In this document: piece by piece, positions 30,944-47,824 of the stretch
Layout of the letters: every line of letters begins with the position of its first letter
Numbering within the stretch: position 1 is the first letter of the stretch
Assembly (NCBI RefSeq): GCF_033153115.1
Contig: NW_026889803.1
Location: 37,634,001 to 37,698,000, forward strand
Source of the DNA: Saccostrea echinata
Taxonomy: Eukaryota
DNA length: 64,000 bases
Direction: 5' to 3'
The notes under the pieces: model-generated
The model's input: only the letters and a program-made list of their open reading frames with translations
Told to the model about the DNA's origin: nothing
The model's database searches: none
Program-made: the position numbers and the translations under genes

Positions 30944-32101
30944 TTATCCGTTATGTTTTCGATTTCCCTTACACATTTTTCCATACAGGTTTTTCAGCTC
31001 CGTTCTAAATGATTTGTTCATGAAAGAATATATGACTGGATTTGTTGTATTGTATACAAAATAGGTATAGAAAATAACAATGTTGAATGGAATAAGTTCC
31101 TGTGTCATCAGTAAGGCTGGTAGAAAAGCAATTAAGAAAACAATGGTGACAATAAACAACATGGCTGCCGTTCTAATGTTGGCATAAAATTGCTTTTCCT
31201 TAAGAGTTGCACCAATCTTTCGAGTTCTTGCATTTTTAACTGTATTATTGGCATTTCCGTCTGATTGTTGAACATGCATCAATGTCATTTCCGTTTCTGC
31301 TAGAGAAGCTTCAGGTTGACAACTTTGACTCGGATAAAGACTTGACCGTTTTCTTTTAGCCTTTCTTGCTCGTCTCACATGTATCTCTCGATATATTAAA
31401 GAGTATAGTACTACAACAAATAAAAACATAAGAAGATATAAAACAGCATGGATCTTAGAAAAAAGTAACACAAAATCCTCATTAAAGATGTCATATTTTG
31501 GTATACACATTCCATACGACGGGTCATAGAAACTTTCTGCTACATCTAAAGAGTCGTTCACTTCATATTTTGTTGAGTTGCACTCAGCTGATCCGTATAA
31601 AATGGATGTATTAAAGGAACACGAATTATTTTTCGGGGAGCCGGGTACCAATCCATTCATATCGTTTATTCCATACATTAATGCTACCAGGACACCTAGA
31701 GTACCAGCAAAAATTAGTAGAATGAAAATGATCAGTTTCGCTCGGAAAATTGTTATTACATGCAGAAATGGGTGGCAGATGCAAAAGTATCTATCAAATG
31801 CAATGGCCACCATAATGAGAGTTGCAAATGGTACACCGCCGGTTATCAGAAACATATACAACTGGCACATAGCATCATATCCATGTTTGTAGTCGAGATA
31901 CACAGTTACGATATTAAATGGGATTATCACTAAACATGTGAAGAAATCGGCTCCAGCCAAGCCTAAAATAAATATACTGGACGTCGACTTGTCTTTTTTC
32001 CTCAGGTAAATGTATAATACAAGAGAGTTTCCGATGGTGCCCACCAAGCTGAAGATACTTTGCATGACAATCACAATGATCTTCTGATCTTTTTCATCCA
32101 T
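30944..32101 (-). CDS. Class A (rhodopsin-like) GPCR, probable orphan/peptide receptor, 385 aa, single coding exon
   Basis: Seven hydrophobic segments with GNSLV (TM1), LAGAD (TM2), C...FDRY (TM3), AFLP (TM6) and NPVIY (TM7), plus FR helix 8. Start taken at AAAATG 32101, 18 nt after acceptor TTTTTTGCAG (32119-32120). The upstream 60 codons of the track ORF look intronic. Confidence 0.92.
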   Translation of the reverse strand: MDEKDQKIIVIVMQSIFSLVGTIGNSLVLYIYLRKKDKSTSSIFILGLAGADFFTCLVIIPFNIVTVYLDYKHGYDAMCQLYMFLITGGVPFATLIMVAIAFDRYFCICHPFLHVITIFRAKLIIFILLIFAGTLGVLVALMYGINDMNGLVPGSPKNNSCSFNTSILYGSAECNSTKYEVNDSLDVAESFYDPSYGMCIPKYDIFNEDFVLLFSKIHAVLYLLMFLFVVVLYSLIYREIHVRRARKAKRKRSSLYPSQSCQPEASLAETEMTLMHVQQSDGNANNTVKNARTRKIGATLKEKQFYANIRTAAMLFIVTIVFLIAFLPALLMTQELIPFNIVIFYTYFVYNTTNPVIYSFMNKSFRTELKNLYGKMCKGNRKHNG

Positions 32102-34804
32102 TTTGATTTTAATCAAAACTGCAAAAAATAAAAGATATTTTTCAAACACACTATAAATATAAGCAAATATGACACATTTTGCAAATAAGTTCAAGAATGT
32201 TATTATGTTTTTATATGCTGACTTCTTACGTGTATCAACTGTATATGTATCTCTAGCTTTGCACCAATAGCTAACCAACATCTAAAAGGCCACTAGAAAA
32301 CACTTTTCATATTTATGTAGGTGTACATGTAGGTGGTAAAATAATGAAACTTTATTAAAATACATGGAATTATAAATTCTGAGAATATCAATGAGAAAAA
32401 ACATTAATTTCAAAAAACTTGCAAAGAGCTTTGCTATGCAAGTTAATAGTTTGTTTTTCTTTGTCTTTATGCAATCCATATAAAATCAAATAGAATTGTC
32501 AATTTTTATGTGTGAACCTCAGAGGAGGGGGGGGGGGGGGGGCAAAAACGAGAAAAGACTCTAACCAAAGCTCTTGTATGCCTCAAATATAATGATAATA
32601 TCTGGTACATGTGTACTTCGAACAGCAATTTAAGAAAATAAAAGTCTAAAATAAATACACATAAGAATATTTCTCCATACTTATCTTTTTATCCTTAAAA
32701 AAACTATTACTTTTTGCTAGCGTCTTAAGACCTAAATTATAGTGGAGTTATTTAATAGATACTTGTACTTCGAACTTAAAAGTTCACCAGGGAAAGGTTC
32801 AGTGTAATGTCTTCTACCATTTTAAGCTGTTAATCTAGATCTATTAGTTTAAGCAAAGAATCAACGTAAATTTCTACATGGAAAATTGGAGTAAAACAAG
32901 AATAAAAAAGAATTATTGTATCTGAAATGGTAATATGGAATGATATTTATCTGTCCCTCTAAACATACATTAAGATATATTACTACTAGTGTGTGATACA
33001 CATCCATTAAGCACTTCGCAATTTTTTGAGGATTTTGACAGTGGAAAGACTAGATAAAAGATATGCTTCTATGGTTGTATGCAATGAAATGACAATTAAA
33101 CCCAAAAATTGGAACATAATGGATAACAATCGACTGAACTATTCTAGTCTAGCAATTTTCGATAATGGGAAATTTGTCACCTGCTGTAACGTACAATATT
33201 AGCACATCCAATTACTTTGCTTCGATAAAATTAATGAGCTGAAAATTATGAGAAATTTATTTTCATGTTAGATAAGGATGAATGAATGCATTGACAGTTT
33301 AATTAATTGTTTTGTTTTCCCTTTTAATTTTGGAAATAAATATAAAATTACTTTGAATAATGTTTGTCGGAAGTACCTTGAACATCTATAAAGGTAATAA
33401 ACTTCATTCGTCAATAGATAAATATCTATGTTTTGTTCAAAGATTGTTTCTTTTATTTTAAAATCAGCTATCAAAGATCGCTTTTGATTAAATGATCATG
33501 CTTTAACACCAAGTTTGAAGATGACGCATAGTAAAGTGCACTCGAATCATGAAGAAGAATGTACGTGATGGGGCCAGCTCATTGACATTAAATGAAAATA
33601 CTCACCTTTTTCATAATGGACATGCTTTCCATTGATTTGCAAAATCCAGTTTTTGGTTCATTTTATGCTTTTTTATTAGTGGATCAATATTTCTGGGGAC
33701 GTAAGACAAATTTTAATTACACAAATACATGTATGTTGAATAATGAACGCCTGGATATCATTTAGAGGAACAGCAATAATCAATACCTAATTCTAAAATT
33801 TCGATTTACGCAATTAAAAAAACAGTCGAATTTAACATACCCACCTTTATTTAATTTAATTACAATCAGCATGCGTTGTCGATCATGTGTTTGTCATTCA
33901 GGGTTAAGTTACAATTGTGAATTATTCAAGTAATTATTTCTCTTTTTGTTAATTAAAATCATTATACACATGTAAGGGTGTTAGAATTCTCTTTCGCACG
34001 CTCAACAAGATAACACTAGTTGATTGATTGTCACTGTACATTGAAAAAAGTAATTTTACACTTACAGAGCTATATAATATTAATGTAATCGCTCTTGGAG
34101 AGCGATGTACTGTTGATGAAATATTTTGATTTTATTCTGGACCGAAAACAATCCATGAAAGAGCAAGAAAAATCTACCTAGCTTATCTAAATACCTAAAG
34201 ATTTACGAATGCAATTGCTTTCACATCACTTTGGTAAGAATTCTATCCATTAGTCTTTTACAGTTTGAAGTGAGATAAAACATATAAGCCATGCAATACT
34301 ACGAAGTCAATCAGAATAGAATAAGGAAGCTTGCAAGCATAACTTTCTCATTTTTCAGAGTACAACAAACAGAAAAAAAGGATAATAAAAGATATTTATT
34401 GCTTACAGTTGATTTGATAAACGCGTGGCTAGCAATGTAACAATTTTGGTAGAGGACTAAGTGTTACATGCATAATCATATAAATAATCAAGTCTTAGGC
34501 CTAAACTTTGGATAATTAATTTCACAGTTTTTTATAGTATAAGGCTCAATTTACTAGTATGTTATAATCATGCCAACAATTTGACAGCTTGACATCCATG
34601 AATGATAAAAAAAATCTACGGTATAAACTATAAAGCATATTTAATATACATGTACATGTATTACTACCTTAGCCAAACTTCACAGTTTTTGCTAAAAGAT
34701 CATAGCTGTTTATCAATTGACTGCTTGGTGTTCAGGAGTAAAAAAGATTTTTGGAGATCATTATTTTTTTGGTTTTGGTCACACTCGTTAGGTTCCAGGG
34801 AGGC

Positions 34805-35482: not shown

Positions 35483-35943
35483 ATTAGTAGGTGAAACCGG
35501 AGGGGACTATAGGTTTCCTCTGAGTCTGTCCGTCCGTCTGTCTGTCTGTCTGTCCCTCTGTCTGTCTGTCAGTCTGTCCCACTTGGTTTTCCGCACTTTT
35601 CTTCTAAACGCTTGCAGATATTGAGCTGATTTTTGGTATGTAAGTGTATCATGATGAGTTACAGATCAAATTTGCATTTTGTTCCGCTTCATTGATTTTT
35701 GACGGAATTACGGCCTTTTCAATTTTTAAGGGTTTTCCGCAATTTTCTTCTAAACGCTTTCAGATATTGAGCTGATTTTTGGTATGTGACTTTACCTTTA
35801 TTAGTTATAGATCAAGTTTGCATTTCGTCCCGCTTCATTGATTTTTGACGGAATTATGGCATTTTCAATTTTTAACGGGAACCAGATTACACTTGCCGGT
35901 AGGGGACTAGTATTGCTAATGCAATACTCTCAGAATGCTTGTT
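35483..35943 (+). mobile_element. HINE with 2 internal ~120-bp repeats; same family as 58037-58432
   Basis: ACCGGAGGGGACTATAGG, (GTCT)n, duplicated CAGATATTGAGCTGATTTTTGGTATG units, and 3' CCGGTAGGGGACT plus hairpin AGTATTGC..GCAATACT. Confidence 0.8.
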
Positions 35944-37020: not shown

Positions 37021-37351
37021 GTGATTGATTGTATGTTGTTTTACGTCCCATTCCAGAATTTTTCACTCATATAGATACATCACCATTAAGCGGTAAAGGG
37101 CTTCAAATTTAGACCTTTACTCGGCACTCCGCGCCATTGAGCAGTAATGGTTCTTGATCGTGCTAACGTTTACCGTGACAAGGAGCCTAGTTTTTAAGGT
37201 CTCATTCGGAAGACCCACAACTTTCACTTCGAAGTTCTGAGCGCTTGGCTAAGGAACAGTTGCTACCTATTTTTTATCTACTTAAGTCTGTCGCGGACGA
37301 GGTTTGAACCCAGGACCTTTCGAACACGGAGCAAGCCCTCTAACAATTGAC
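37021..37351 (-). mobile_element. SINE family B
   Basis: Homologous to 8488-8780 and 52399-52730, with a (GATT)n tail. TSD ATATTTTGA. Confidence 0.88.
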
Positions 37352-40300: not shown

Positions 40301-41811
40301 TAGAATAAGTTAATAAAAATACATGCAAGTTCAACAAAGTCATTATCTTGGAAAATGCTTTGATCTCTCGCAAAATCCTTTCATTAATTAGCTTTATTCA
40401 CGTCATTTTTTTTTAAAAACTCATTTTCATTTAGGTTTTAGTTCTCTCCTTTTGAGAGAGAGAGAGAGAGAGCTCTTTTAATCTTGTTTTTTTTTTTTTT
40501 TTTTTTTTTGAAACACAACTTCATAGATATTGGTTTTCTTCCGGACAGTTTTTACTTTTCTTATCGATCTTATCATGAGCAGGGGGTGGGTGAGTGGGTC
40601 CGAATCCCCCTTGGATTTTCTGAGTTATAAATTTGTATGTAAAGTAACGAAAAAGTTACCTTGGACCCTCGTTAGGAAACAAGGTTCCCGTGTAAAATAG
40701 TAAGGAAAGTCAAGTATTCAAAGAAAATAAACTTTAAAAAGTGACCCCCCCCCCCCCAATAGGTTTTTTCAGATTTTATTCTTTTTGGAAAAAAGTCCTG
40801 GATACGCGCATTGGGTGCACGTGTGGGTCTGTCGTTCACTAGAAGAGGGCTCTACGATTATACGGACTGAGCAATGACACCGCGATAGTTTTTTATGTAA
40901 TTTAAAATACTAGTATATGAGATTTTGAGGAAGGCTTAGGGTCATCACATATTCTAAAACATAACTCCTTGGTCAATATTACTTGGAATGGTGCTTAAAT
41001 AAGCAATCAAAGTACATGCTTACTGCTTAAACACTCGGATCTGTACTTTGAAGTTTTCTAGCCTAGAATCAACCAATAATCCATTTTAAATAAGCTCGAT
41101 TTGTATTACTGAATCTGCCTCGGTGGTAGATATTGATGCCTTACATTGCATATTATATTTTGAGACTGCATTGAAATAAAATGACTGTCATAACGTAGAT
41201 TCATTTGGTGCTTAAAATTCACAACGGAAATACCCTTTCCATGGAAAAATGACAGTTATTCGAATTTAAGTTAATTGCAACAGTAGCAATTGGTTATCTT
41301 CTACAAAAATAGGGTTAATAAAGTGTGACCCTCTGTTATTTATTTATCTGCAAGAGAATCTATCGATTGTAAAAGGACCAGTTGCATGCACGATTAAATA
41401 ATAATCAGTTTCCCTTTTTATTATTCGGAAATAAAGGATAATAAAAAAAACTGAATATTTGTTTGATATCTGAAAAGATGTATTTGATAAAGAACGGGCC
41501 TCCAAGTGAGAGATCAATTATTAAGAGAAAAGTTTGTCTAATTTTTCATTCTCGCATTTTTCGTGAAAACCTATCCGTCTCTGTCATTGGTTCAACCAAG
41601 ACTTGCTCCGCTAGCTCTTGTTGATATAGTAGAGCGTAAGTATCAGACTGTAGTCTCAAACTGAAAAAAAATTTGATCCTTCTATATTAGGTGTTTTAGA
41701 GACATGGTGCACTCTATTTGATTAATTATCAATCCCCTCCAAGATCAAAATGGTGGTGTTACTGTTTTACTTATATGATGGCATCTGGTAGAGTCGAACA
41801 AATAAGGAATA

Positions 41812-42438
41812 TTATTATATAGTCTATAAATACTTTCTATATAATCTATACAAACGCAAACAGTTCATAATACTACATATTCACTGGATTTGAAGAAGTA
41901 TTCACCGGAGAGTCAGTGCGCGTGCAGCGGCATTGTGACGTCACAATCAATACCTCAAACGTTGAAAACAATGGTTGCAACGGCCTGAGCCAGTTGTGTA
42001 TCAGAGCAGGAATAATGTTAAGCAAGTCTATCGCAGGATTATTTCCAAAAAGTTCGATGCCTTACCCACAGCGAAAGGGAATCACAGAAGTTATAACTCG
42101 TAATCTGGGCATTTTTTTTAGTTTCAGCGACAGAAGTTCGTTAATGAAAATGATATCGTCATGCAGCCTTTAATGTCTTATTAATTCAAATCCTGACTAT
42201 ATAATAAATAATGGACACTTACGTTGGTGAATATGGTTTGTTATTCACTAGAAAATATAAATATTGACTTCGGCTTCGCCTCGGTCAATATTGATATTTT
42301 TCTGGTGAATAACGAACCATATTCACCACCGAAAGATTCCATAATTGCATATTATTATTATATAGTCTATAAATACTCCCTATATAATCTATACAAACGC
42401 AAACAGTTCATTATACTACATATTCACTGGATTTGAAG
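41812..42438. mobile_element. Terminal-hairpin element followed by a head-to-tail partial second copy
   Basis: IR TTATTATATAGTC (41812) / GACTATATAATAA (42195-42207). Palindrome at 42208-42345 with GGCTTCGCC loop. 41812-41895 is repeated at 42355-42438. Confidence 0.75.
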
Positions 42439-42439
42439 C

Positions 42440-42900
42440 CGTATTATATAAGATGATTATATTCGTAATTTTCATTGGTTGAAAGGACACCTCGTGATAT
42501 TTGTCTTTTTGTGATATTGACGCGAAAGCGCGTCCACGGAATATGATATCGCACGACTCGTCGTTCGTCTGCACCAACGAACGTACGTGACGTCATAATA
42601 TACATATAAGAAGCATGTTTTTACCATTGTGACGTAATGACAGCCAAGACTGTTCAGTTAGGACTGTGTCAGATTATTCATTTTGAGTGTTTCTATAAAT
42701 TAACTATTATGAACTTCGATCAGTGAACGGTCACTATGTGGTTCCAAGGACCCTTATCAAGTGATATTGACCTCAGACACAGAAAATGATAGCGACATCG
42801 CAAGCTCGGTGGCTATCACTTTTGTGTCTTCGGTCAGTATCACTTGACATCCGTCTTTAGAACTACATATCGACCTACACTGAAGTCCATAATTGTATAA
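42440..42900. mobile_element. Terminal-hairpin element (another family)
   Basis: ~190-bp imperfect palindrome at 42703-42897 (TCAAGTGATATTGACC...CGCAAGCTCG...GGTCAGTATCACTTGA), ending ATTGTATAA. Confidence 0.65.
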
Positions 42901-42955
42901 CATTCCCTCAGTCTATGCAATATTTTGTGGCAGTCAGACGGGTTCGATCGCCGGT

Positions 42956-43028
42956 GGCCAGATAGCTCAGTTGGTAGAGCACCTGACTGGAGATTTAGGG
43001 GGCCCGGGTTCGAATCCCGGTCTGGTCC
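42956..43028 (+). ncRNA. tRNA-like sequence within the TRIM 5' LTR (probably not a functional tRNA)
   Basis: Acceptor stem GGCCAGA/TCTGGTC, D arm GCTC-AGTTGGTA-GAGC, T arm CCGGG-TTCGAAT-CCCGG. The anticodon loop has 8 nt. TTTTT follows downstream. Confidence 0.75.
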
Positions 43029-43186
43029 GCTGCATTTTTCTCCTCTCCCGTTACATTTGGTGCCGTGCCATGCCCTGGAAGTGACAGGTGAAAGACCTGC
43101 CAGGGAAAAGCCTGGGTTGGTGTCTTCGGGGCCGAAGACCTTTAAGGAGGGAGGAATGTGGCGGTCAGATAGGTTCGATCGCCGGT

Positions 43187-43259
43187 GGCCAGATAGTTCA
43201 GTTGGTAGAGCACCTGACTGGAGATTCAGGGGGCCCGGGTTCGAATCCCGGTCTGGTCC
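43187..43259 (+). ncRNA. tRNA-like sequence within the TRIM 3' LTR
   Basis: Second copy. Anticodon stem CCTGA/TCAGG with the 8-nt loop CTGGAGAT. Confidence 0.75.
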
Positions 43260-44095
43260 GCTGCATTTTTCTACTCTTCCGTTACAATTTGAAGCCTCAA
43301 CCATTTTACTTTCTCATGTAAGTGTATGTTTAAAGAGGAGTTAGGAAAAGAAAGAAATATACAACTCCAAACAAAAATTGTCCATTCAATCAATGAATAC
43401 TTTAAGTTAGTCTTTAAGAAGATTATGAACAATTTCTTAAATAGACACTCATTCTAAAGAATATGTTCAAGGGTGCGTTCTCTAAGCAAATTGGATGACA
43501 TGTATAATTCTTTATTTAAAAAAAAACTGTCTGAAAAAGTGATTCAGTAGGTGCTAATCTTCTATGTCGGAATGTACACACCTTTGCCTGATGTATTTGC
43601 TACATGTACTATACGATGTAACTGTGTAAATGACCTGGATATTAACATCTATAAGCATGGGCACTTTATTTTTTTATAAGCTGTTATCAACTCTTTTTGA
43701 CCTCATATCGGGTTTAGAAAGCATCATTGTAAGCAAACTCAAGAATTAATGTATGCATTTACTTTCCTATTTACTTGCAAACCTGAAGTTATTCCTCTTT
43801 TTTTCTTGTCATATGATTAATCTGTCTTCATGAAGAGATATAGTAACATAAAACCGGAAATTAAATAACAAACAAACATTTAAAAAAATATAATCATACA
43901 AATGTAGTTTCATCAATTCTTGAAAGTTTCGACAACTTAATTAACTGCTCTCTAAAACAAAGAGTGCGAATATAAGCATGATAAGTGCCGGAAAAACGAA
44001 GGTTGTTTCAACTGTAACTTTGATTGGAAGCATGTTGTTCTTTGATTTTTTTTTTCGAAGATTCGGTCAAAATTCTCGGTCAACCAACATTCAAT

Positions 44096-44263
44096 GATTG
44101 ATTGATTGTATATTTTTTTACGTCCCATTCGAGAATTTCCACTTATATAGAGACGTCACCATATACCGGTAAAGGGCTTCAAATTTCGAGGGATATTTAT
44201 CTTTATCGTGCCAATGCCTGCCGTGAAACGGGGCCTCGGTTTTTAAGGTCTCGGCCGAAGGAC
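44096..44263 (-). mobile_element. 5'-truncated SINE family B
   Basis: (GATT)n tail. 12-bp TSD CCAACATTCAAT (44084-44095, 44264-44275). Confidence 0.85.
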
Positions 44264-46234
44264 CCAACATTCAATTCTTGAGATATGAGGTCATGATAAC
44301 TTCTTAATGTTTTTCTGCACACGCGTATAATCTGGAGGAAAGAAAGGTTTTCATGGTGGACTAAACAGACATAATTATTTTCCGCCATAAACGTCGATGT
44401 TGTAGGTTCTAAAACCTGCACGTTTGTGAAATCAAATACATGTACTTTGAATTCACGAAATTGAACAAAATTTGTACGAACCATACAAAAAATCTAATTC
44501 TTTTTTCCCCTCATTTTTTTCCTTATGCATCACTGTTTCTTTCATGGAACAGTTGGAATGTTGGTTGAATGTTGCGGTTAATATAACCTTTATTTTTACG
44601 GCACTTACGTCTATATACTGCACTTTTTGCTTGCTTTTCAGTTCGGCTGACTTTGTCAATACTTCCCTATGCTATATTTTTATAAGTCTTTTGCTTTATG
44701 GTACAAATGTCAATGTTATACTTTCATGTAAATTAATTGAATCTGATTCGTTGAGAAACATTTGTTAAAAAACACTAATACCCACTGAATGCTGAAGCCA
44801 CGCCCTCCAGCGTAGCAACAGTCAACATTGCTTGACGACGGGTGTTATTCCAAAAAATAGTGACTGCGCAGAATTTATGCGCGCAAGGTTCACTGTTGTA
44901 TGTAATTGTATAAAACATTCAGCAAAATGTTTACTCAACTACATGCAATATTTATATATTAACAAATTCATGTCATTGTGCTTTCTGTATCTCATTTATC
45001 ACTAGTATCGTCAAGAGGGAAATAAGTACAGAATTTGTCTAATTTCCAAGTACATGTATTAAGATCAAGGTTTTATAATCAAGGCTTCGGTGGAAATTGG
45101 ACTTGAGCCGGATAGTTAAGCTAAACCTGTAGGCCATATTTTAAAAAAAAAACTCTACACTAAGAATCTGACACAAATAAATTTACAAGTATTTATAACT
45201 GAGGACCAAGACACATTAAGGAAAATCATTAAATTATTTTAAATTAAAAAGTAGGAGTAGTGTTTACGAGTTTATAGTTGATTCATAGAATTCTTAGTCT
45301 ATAAATTCGACAGTTGAAAATTTGCCAAAAATAAGGATAAACTGTCAAATTTTGTGAGTTATCTGAAACAGAGTCGCAGATAGAAAATTGTCATTAAATA
45401 TTCATCTTGCATAACAACTGTATGCTGTTCTGAGAATCATATCATCTGCAACGATGTACTATGAAATTTGAGAATATAAAATATCTACCGATATATATAC
45501 AGTGTAGAAAAACATTTAGGATTATGTTTATCACAACACTTTATCAGCTATTGCTTCTTTATCACTGGAAGAGCTCAGTTTTTTTCCACGAGACTGGATC
45601 ACACATTTTCCCGGAAAAAGTCTAGAAACTCTGCAGTGAGTGATGACACAAGTCGTGTCAGCCGTCGTCTCGGTTTAGGAATAATCTTTTAGAGAGTGCT
45701 TAAGGAAAACAGAGAAAATTAGTAGTTAGCAGGGAGGGATATTGGAGCAGCATAAAGGATTCATTGAAGTGATAATGACATCCAAGGTGACCTAAATTCT
45801 TACTGTATTTGTCCCTTAGAAAACGCTAAGTAAATATTGCAAATTTTATTGATGTTATAATATGTATTATGATAATTGTAATAGAATTAAAGAAAAGTAA
45901 GATAGTGCACCTTGTGGGCGTTTCAGGTTCGAATTAATGAATGCACAAAACCTATAATACTTAGTATTGCAATTTTCTCGAGTACATGCATATCACATTA
46001 TACATGTATAATGCATCACATAATGTGTATTAGTTCTTTCCACTTCAGCAGAGTTCATTTAGCACAAGCTACTCTACGTATTTAGAAACATACAAAATTG
46101 CATGTAAATGCAATTAGAAGAAAGTTAAAGAAGCAGATGAGAAGAAAAATTTACTGAAGCTTCGATGTCTAAAACCATTTCAGTGTCAACCATTGGATAC
46201 AACTAATACATGTTTGATTTCTCCTGTTGTCTTT

Positions 46235-46547
46235 TGACTGATTGAATGTTGTTTTACGTTCCATTCGAGAATTTTACACTCATGCAGAGACGTCGCCATA
46301 TACCGGTGAAGGGCTTCAAATTTAGATCTTTACTCGGCACTCACGGCCATTGAACAGTGATGGTTCTTTATCGTGCCAACGCCTACCGTGACACGGGGCC
46401 TCGGTTTTTAAGGTCTCATCCGAAAGGCAACTTTCTTTTCAAAGTGCCGAGCGCTTCGCGAAGGAACAGTTGCTACCTATATTTTATCGACTTAGGTCAG
46501 TCGTGGCTGTGATTCGAACACCCGACCTTCCGATCATGGAGCGAGCG
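46235..46547 (-). mobile_element. SINE family B
   Basis: Homologous to the other copies. 14-bp TSD CTCCTGTTGTCTTT (46221-46234, 46548-46561). Confidence 0.9.
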
Positions 46548-47824
46548 CTCCTGTTGTCTTTAAAAATAAAAAAGGAAATGCATGTTTGTGTTCAGATGGT
46601 CAGAATTTCGATCGGAGTAAGAACGTATTTAATAAGAATGATACTTGAATAAATATTTCAAAGTAAGCGACTCCATGATTCCAGTCTCAAATCAATAGAT
46701 ATGACATCTTTTAAGAGGCTTCAGTAAATTTGTCATCATTTATTATCTGTAAGTTCAACAGTTAAAAATTTGCACAAAATAAGGGCAGACAGTCCAGTTT
46801 TATCAGTTACCTGAAACAGAGTTCCAGATGGAGGATTTTCATTAAATATGAATCCGATTCATAATTAATTAGACTGATTCAACTCTAAAGGTAAAGTGAT
46901 GCATTTCAGATAAAAACAATTTTGGTATGAAAGGACCTTCCAATAGCCAAATAAACCTTATCAATATTTTGACAAATGTATGTTTGTTGGGGACATGTTG
47001 CTATTCATTTTGTGGTGATTTGTACTTTTTTGTCAATAACTCAAGGACAGCAGCTCAATAATATCCTATTTTGATTTTATATTATGAACCTTGAATTTTT
47101 TTCCCTGAATATCTAATAGAAACTTAAGGAAAATGAATCCATATTTGCATTAATGCACAGAATCATATTCTGAAAATGATTTATTTGACAGTTATTCTGT
47201 ATTTCATAAAACTTTTTCAGAATAAAAGCCATATTAAATGTCATTTTGGTGGCATTAAGTAATAAAACAAATGTTTATATTTTTCGCTGAATTTCAAAGA
47301 CTAGCTATAGGGGAAGCAAAATATGATTTCTCATTTTTCCATCATTTTCTTTTAAAATAAAGCAATTTACATAATTAACTTGTTTTCATTTGCTTCTGTA
47401 CTTTGTGAAAGTTTTTGCATAAAGTGAAAGAAATTATGCAAGCCATCTGAGTGTTCTGAAACAATTTGATGAGCATTATTTTTATTACATTAAGATTTAT
47501 ACGTACTGTAATTATTACTATAGAGAATAAAAAGATTTAGACTTGATCATTGTTATTGCATTCAGTTTGTATGCAGTCATATATTTTATTATGCATATCT
47601 AACTGATGCCTAAACTTAATAGTTTTAGAAGTTGGTTTGGGTCGGAAGTACAATAGAAGTATTTAATTTCAATTTAAGGTTACTCTGATCTTATATTTCA
47701 AATTTTATTTATTTATCTTAAATTAATAATTGTTACCCTATCAAACTATTTGCCTAGTAAATGCCCAAGGATACAAGAAAGGTTATTTGTAAACAAGGTT
47801 GATGTAGAATATTTGATCCAATAT

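Follow-up and report, generated by a model that had tools for sequence, protein, structure and literature searches.

The window, a stretch of 64 kb of Saccostrea echinata DNA analysed here as a whole, carries a 361-bp element at 42926-43286. This element is very probably a full-length, moderately old copy of Helenus-1_SaGl, or of a closely related oyster subfamily, and would be transcribed by RNA polymerase III (Pol III) and mobilised by a Gypsy-type helper. Judged by its sequence, it belongs to a published and catalogued family of oyster TRIMs and is in that sense already known. What is new is confined to a predicted fold-back of its RNA, in which the tail of the first LTR would pair with the polypurine tract (PPT) and the beginning of the second LTR.

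The layout ATTT-LTR 130-internal 101-LTR 130-ATTT agrees with the sequence base for base. The initial annotation had described a complete TRIM of 361 bp with 4-bp ATTT TSDs, PBS and PPT, and all of these boundaries were reproduced (Table 1). The two LTRs are identical at 123 of 130 sites, and their seven differences comprise six transitions and one transversion. Two bases separate the end of LTR1 from the PBS, while the PPT abuts LTR2 directly. TSD lengths of 3, 5, 6 and 7 bp were also checked at the element ends and gave no match, so that 4 bp alone fits. With less than 1000 bp, two LTRs, a PBS after the first, a PPT before the second and no mobilisation protein seen, the element has the features expected of a TRIM. 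Two stop-to-stop frames cross it, and no Pfam match was obtained in the one that was scanned. Repeat comparison detected no second copy within the window. A scan for bacterial promoters and terminators found nothing in the element, bacterial models being unsuited to an element of this kind.

Table 1 Features of the 361-bp element and of its predicted RNA stem (positions in the window)
Feature	Position	Strand	Basis
TSD, left, ATTT	42922..42925	+	Direct reading of sequence
5' LTR (LTR1), 130 bp, TG...CA	42926..43055	+	Repeat comparison; public-run contigs end at 42926 and 43055
Upstream B-box-like motif GGTTCGATC	42941-42949 (LTR1), 43172-43180 (LTR2)	+	Sequence reading
tRNA-like cloverleaf 1, 73 nt	42956..43028	+	ARAGORN, Rfam, stem-pair check
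A box, cloverleaf 1	42963-42974	+	Sequence reading
Anticodon loop, 8 nt, cloverleaf 1	42987-42994	+	Sequence reading
B box, cloverleaf 1	43007-43017	+	Sequence reading
5' arm of predicted long-range stem (LTR1, from the 3' strand of the acceptor through tail and T5 to the pyrimidine tract)	43020..43046	+	Folding
T5, putative Pol III terminator, LTR1	43035-43039	+	Sequence reading
Internal region, 101 bp, non-coding	43056..43156	+	Repeat comparison, reading frames, Pfam
PBS, His-type	43058..43067	+	Comparison with tRNA-His printed in PMC10886601 Fig. S2C
7-bp hairpin directly before PPT, candidate packaging signal	43122..43139	+	Folding, p ~0.55
PPT, 13 nt	43144..43156	+	Sequence reading
3' arm of predicted long-range stem (PPT and first 14 nt of LTR2)	43146..43170	+	Folding
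3' LTR (LTR2), 130 bp, TG...CA	43157..43286	+	Repeat comparison
tRNA-like cloverleaf 2, 73 nt	43187..43259	+	ARAGORN, Rfam
T5, putative Pol III terminator, LTR2	43266-43270	+	Sequence reading
TSD, right, ATTT	43287..43290	+	Direct reading of sequence

The closest published relative is Helenus-1_SaGl from Saccostrea glomerata, which has an LTR of 129 bp, an internal part of 103 bp, a total length of 361 bp and a 4-bp TSD (Kojima 2024, PMC10886601 Table S1), and whose consensus is printed in Data S1 of the same paper. Compared by eye with this consensus, with no aligner involved, the element is identical in 340 of 363 columns (93.7%), with 124/130 in LTR1, 121/130 in LTR2 and 95/103 in the internal region. 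Full-length Helenus copies were counted at >90% identity and length (PMC10886601), and the by-eye identity of 93.7% to Helenus-1_SaGl lies above this identity threshold. The two share the length of 361 bp, the 4-bp TSD, a His-type PBS, the same PPT and a tRNA-like LTR with an 8-nt loop. They differ in the LTR, which has 129 bp and T4 in the consensus versus 130 bp and T5 here, and in the internal part (103 versus 101 bp). The name Helenus given in the initial annotation is the correct one, and the class is known.

Helenus-2C_CGi of Crassostrea gigas, for which 1124 LTRs and 402 internal parts were counted (PMC10886601 Table S3), has an LTR of the same layout (128 bp) as the element, an internal part of 101 bp, a His PBS and an 8-nt loop, but is more diverged, and its printed consensus lacks four consecutive T downstream of the tRNA-like unit. 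Cassandra, a plant TRIM, likewise carries a Pol III-type promoter in each LTR, and a super-hairpin pairing both of its LTRs has been predicted; it is, however, 5S-derived, and the accessible part of the article describes LTR-LTR pairing, not pairing of an LTR tail with the PPT (PMC7215508). The biv-TRIMs are also short non-autonomous LTR elements of bivalves, but they constitute another family, reported with 202-218 bp repeats, a 77-80 bp internal part and no canonical PBS (PMC6934838).

The element had been noticed for its resemblance to two tandem tRNA genes, and ARAGORN and Rfam do recover a cloverleaf with A and B boxes in each LTR. The Rfam tRNA model gave 59.4 bits for the first unit and 57.9 bits for the second (cut-off 29), and 21/21 stem pairs are Watson-Crick or G-U in each cloverleaf. 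ARAGORN reported both units as tRNA-???, assigning no amino acid. The anticodon loop of 8 nt, described as abnormal at the outset, was confirmed, and because of it neither unit has an assignable anticodon. The same loop is common to the printed consensuses of Helenus-1_SaGl and Helenus-2C_CGi, and a term search of the supplement gave no Helenus-1_SaGl entry in Fig. S1, whose rows show tRNAs that may be functional (PMC10886601). A tRNA-derived sequence with A and B boxes in each LTR, the feature by which Helenus is recognised, is present with motifs as in section 3.5 of PMC10886601, where these boxes are the part conserved across Helenus. Molluscan Helenus was aligned with tRNA-Lys-TTT in the Fig. 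2d legend of that paper.

Two tandem host tRNA genes or pseudogenes that arose by local duplication, with PBS, PPT and ATTT present by coincidence, would also be expected to score as tRNA with all stems kept. The ATTT match, taken alone, has a 0.7% chance, as 443 of the 63,630 pairs of positions that lie equally far apart in the window share a 4-mer. This explanation is nevertheless already contradicted and can be regarded as extremely improbable: there is no assignable anticodon in the 8-nt loops, the repeats run TG...CA with PBS and PPT exactly at the junctions, the entire 361 bp matches a published TRIM, and the flanks of other copies are unrelated. Such LTR pairs are a warning of inflated tRNA gene counts in oyster genomes.

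The evidence on other copies comes from a comparison of the stretch 42600-43600 with contigs of four of the 24 listed public runs (X1, X3, X4 and X14; best share 0.18). Contigs of this kind carry no information on expression or on where transcripts end, and that X4 is RNA is a guess. Contigs ended before 42926 in 58 (X1), 38 (X3) and 122 (X14) cases and behind 43055 in 45 (X1) and 37 (X3), and the flanks beyond the LTR ends agreed with each other only at 0.39-0.42. Since the contigs break off at the LTR ends into unlike flanks, the Helenus family of this element is dispersed and multi-copy, as seen in three public DNA runs (X1, X3 and X14). In three of the listed X1 contigs, a single LTR lies by itself in longer sequence, as a solo LTR would. 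One X4 contig matches 42967-43106 with a single differing letter, so that several differences from the Helenus-1_SaGl consensus mark a subfamily and not decay of the copy. None of the listed contigs reaches across a complete element into both flanks, as reading the TSDs of other copies would require. The right flank at 43314-43483 had no cover in any of the four runs; no empty site was seen, and no run can be regarded as material of the window itself. Dispersed copies with distinct 4-bp TSDs had been anticipated: the dispersal was borne out by the unlike flanks, and the 4-bp TSD was read at the window copy.

Loose ends at 42962 and 43252 (X1) carry letters like those of Helenus-2_SaGl, a sister family that departs from the element's own family in its LTR start and its post-tRNA tail, on both sides of the predicted stem. 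Pattern searches yielded 0 matches for the T-arm motif in metagenome contigs and 0 for the D-arm motif in viral contigs. Five matches to the PPT motif in metagenome contigs were rejected as chance, their similarity being limited to the 19-20 bases of the pattern itself.

The DNA of the window is AT-rich and of animal type, and it contains a GPCR frame, repeats resembling SINEs and a Gypsy-type element that is broken. The GPCR frame is a long open frame at 30944-32281 (-) with a rhodopsin-family match (Pfam 7tm_1), and the Helenus copy lies ~10.6 kb upstream of it. A dispersed repeat of ~330 bp at 52403-52742 (+) has a tRNA-like head (Rfam 30.5 bits at 52403-52475) and is probably a tRNA-derived SINE; its copies lie near 4507-4803, 8484-8776, 15745-15926, 37022-37342, 44095-44273, 46228-46550 and 56122-56287, and a 'tRNA-Ser' reported by ARAGORN at 4712-4803 falls within one of them. 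The repeat at 41810-42905, which adjoins the element on its left and is covered by many X1 and X3 contigs, contains long hairpins (42207-42346 and 42729-42875) and a 93-bp direct repeat, and is possibly a non-autonomous DNA transposon. Tandem arrays occupy 14753-15315 (period 140 bp), 23061-23764 (165 bp) and 35585-35875 (146 bp), the last of which lies behind a GTCT microsatellite and has an inverted counterpart near 58060-58416.

Regarding mobilisation, the initial annotation had proposed priming by tRNA-His and a Gypsy-type integrase. The PBS was compared with the tRNA-His of Fig. S2C in PMC10886601, which upholds the proposed primer: the PBS of Helenus-1_SaGl is filed there under tRNA-His, beside Gypsy-39_CGi, a His-primed autonomous example. 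A Gypsy-type helper mobilising the element is inferred both in Kojima 2024, with Gypsy-39_CGi listed under tRNA-His, and here. Host tRNA-His would prime reverse transcription at the PBS and the plus strand would be primed from the PPT, while an autonomous Gypsy-type element would supply reverse transcriptase and integrase in trans, leaving the 4-bp duplication. For the priming and the enzymes in trans, as well as the Pol III start and the read-through discussed below, this proposal follows PMC10886601 and established LTR biology.

No His-primed helper was found within the window, where the His-type motif occurs once, in this element. The broken Gypsy-type LTR element at 1-8081 (+) has LTRs at 1-509 (cut by the window start) and ~7563-8081, which are 94.8% alike, protease and integrase Pfam matches in separate frames, and a PBS at 515-533. 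It was rejected as the helper because this PBS is Leu-type, not His. Self-priming by the tRNA-like end of the LTR itself was also discarded, as its 3' end mismatches the PBS, and the same is reported in PMC10886601.

Pol III transcription of the element is inferred in PMC10886601 as well as here, the promoter being described by Kojima 2024 as not experimentally validated. Through the A and B boxes of the 5' LTR, Pol III would be recruited to a point immediately upstream of the tRNA-like unit. The majority of transcripts would end at the first T-run, yielding a short tRNA look-alike unable to decode, and a minority would pass the weak T4 or T5 and then stop at, or run past, the second T-run. 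The resulting read-through RNA would measure ~320 nt and carry the tRNA-like part as a terminal repeat.

How transcription could pass a T5 terminator had been raised as a question. The T5 run is present in both LTRs, as claimed, but published oyster consensuses carry T4 or weaker in 16 of 16 cases: as counted by eye, the longest run of T downstream of the B box is T4 in 10/16, T3 or less in 6/16 and T5 or longer in 0/16. Several non-oyster consensuses have T5 or T6 (e.g., 1_PiNo, 1_BaPl, 4_PeMa, 1_TeGr and 2_TeGr). One T is absent at 43035 in 60% of the X1 depth, 52% of the X3 depth and 0/57 of the X4 depth. Not every lineage has the weaker T4, given that T5 stands in both LTRs here and throughout the X4 depth. 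The share of Pol III transcripts that terminate in human cells is 75% at T4 and 95% at T5 (PMC5725217), and in yeast T4 becomes stronger when a hairpin lies no more than 7 nt upstream of it (bioRxiv 10.1101/2021.08.27.457903). By arithmetic from the human rates, which may not transfer to oysters, ~19% of starts would pass the first run and stop at the second with T4, and ~5% with T5. Leaky read-through is plausible because T5 is untypical of the oyster consensuses, and by this analogy it would plausibly suffice, in principle, for full-length RNA.

The genomic RNA of this Helenus element might instead arise by RNA polymerase II read-through from host DNA, with the tRNA-like part serving as RNA structure or giving short Pol III products only. 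This would dispense with the passage of Pol III through the T-run in the 5' LTR, it is compatible with a promoter described as unvalidated, and it has a parallel in the multi-element read-through transcripts of Cassandra arrays (PMC7215508). We consider it unlikely, since both LTRs retain intact A and B boxes, which are conserved across Helenus, T4 is leaky, and in 6/16 of the oyster consensuses the B box is not followed by four consecutive T at all.

Folding of either the whole element or a Pol III-type transcript (42946-43270) predicts a stem of 25 bp between the tail of LTR1 and the PPT with the start of LTR2 (mean pair probability 0.78-0.81), whose core, pairing 43027-43035 with 43156-43164, reaches 0.87-0.98 at 37 C. 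The duplex energy is -28.4 kcal/mol, a value attained by shuffles of one arm in 39 and 1 per 5000 trials. In the read-through RNA, this pairing would bring the two ends together, whereas a transcript stopping at the first T-run is predicted to form the cloverleaf. If both cloverleaves are imposed on the long transcript, the penalty is 16 kcal/mol, and the stem between tail and PPT still forms. Tertiary contacts of tRNA are not taken into account by the folding program. In folds of nascent RNA ending at 43067, 43100 and 43140, the cloverleaf gives way to other pairings before the PPT exists, which makes opening of the first acceptor stem by the second LTR a fragile claim.

LTR positions 1-30 resemble an inverted T-arm, acceptor strand and tail (17/5000 shuffles reach the alignment score), and the PPT together with these positions aligns with the reverse complement of the stretch from the T-arm to the LTR end (2/5000 shuffles are as good). 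This alignment explains the upstream motif that had been taken for an extra B box: the motif is there, and it is better read as an inverted T-arm that belongs to one half of an inverted repeat.

Across bivalve families, the pairing seems by eye to covary, in a comparison that was not blind, had no null model and scored part of the 51 bivalve families. The first eight LTR bases and the bases directly before the T-run change together. In Helenus-1_SaGl and the window, TGTGGCGG pairs with CCGCTGCA at 8/8 positions, two of them G-U, while in the scallop families 1_ArIr and 2_PeMa TGTAGCGG pairs with CCGCTACA (8/8) and in 2C_CGi TGTGACGG pairs with CCGTCATT (7/8). The octamers also pair at 7/8 positions each in 1_TeGr and 5_PiIm, and with one bulge in 2_SaGl and 2_TeGr. 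In 4_PiIm, the PPT GGCGGGGTGGAG pairs 12/12 with TTCCATTCCGCC in the LTR tail, including one A-T and one G-C pair that composition leaves unexplained, and 2_PiIm shows a similar pairing of PPT and tail. Among the printed consensuses, no matching pairing was seen by eye in four Thr-type oyster families (3_CGi, 3_CVi, 4_SaGl and 4B_SaGl) or in the fish Helenus families. Hairpins directly before the PPT, similar to that of the element with changed letters, were seen by eye in other bivalve Helenus families.

Complementarity between the tail and the PPT with the LTR start could also be a by-product of an old inverted duplication or of pyrimidine/purine composition with no role as RNA structure. 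This is a real possibility, if a somewhat doubtful one. The whole element is not unusually stable, folding modestly better than its shuffles (z -1.80; 7/100 as stable), purines and pyrimidines match easily once G-U pairs are allowed, and the family comparison has the unblinded character noted above and fails to extend to fish and to the Thr-type oyster families. Shuffles keeping composition in blocks nevertheless reach the duplex energy in 15/5000 trials only; among window tiles, 1/4922 did so. Moreover, both sides of the LTR-start octamer and of the PPT interior change jointly across four bivalve orders, and many of the differences are G-U, which suits pairing of RNA.

Based on these observations, we tentatively postulate, with confidence just short of even, that bivalve Helenus RNAs carry a conserved and hitherto undescribed switch. 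The short transcript would be a tRNA look-alike, while the read-through transcript would pair the tail and T-run of LTR1 with the PPT and the start of LTR2, looping out the internal region, with possible roles in strand transfer, PPT shielding and escape from processing; together with a weak terminator, this would give a full-length template.

The words 'inverted' and 'hairpin' do not occur in the Helenus paper, which mentions a terminator for Cassandra only (PMC10886601), and the accessible text of two further articles merely cites Helenus (PMC12859917, PMC13570524). Pairing of LTR tail and PPT in such elements was not found in the literature searched, which covered few subscription journals or Repbase reports. 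A functional analogy is provided by CYC5/CYC3 of Ty1, where 5' and 3' regions of an LTR-element RNA also pair over a long range; Ty1 is, however, an autonomous yeast element with other sequences and positions, and its pairing rests on genetics and probing, against prediction alone here (PMC7969010).

Should the fold-back prove real, Helenus would possess a cis-acting RNA element of which we found no description in the literature searched. The stem would hold the terminal repeats side by side for minus-strand transfer and shield the PPT until priming has begun. It may also open the first acceptor stem, sparing genomic RNA from tRNA-processing nucleases. The fold-back would also offer a testable account of how full-length RNA is made and protected when both LTRs of an element carry a tRNA promoter and a terminator.
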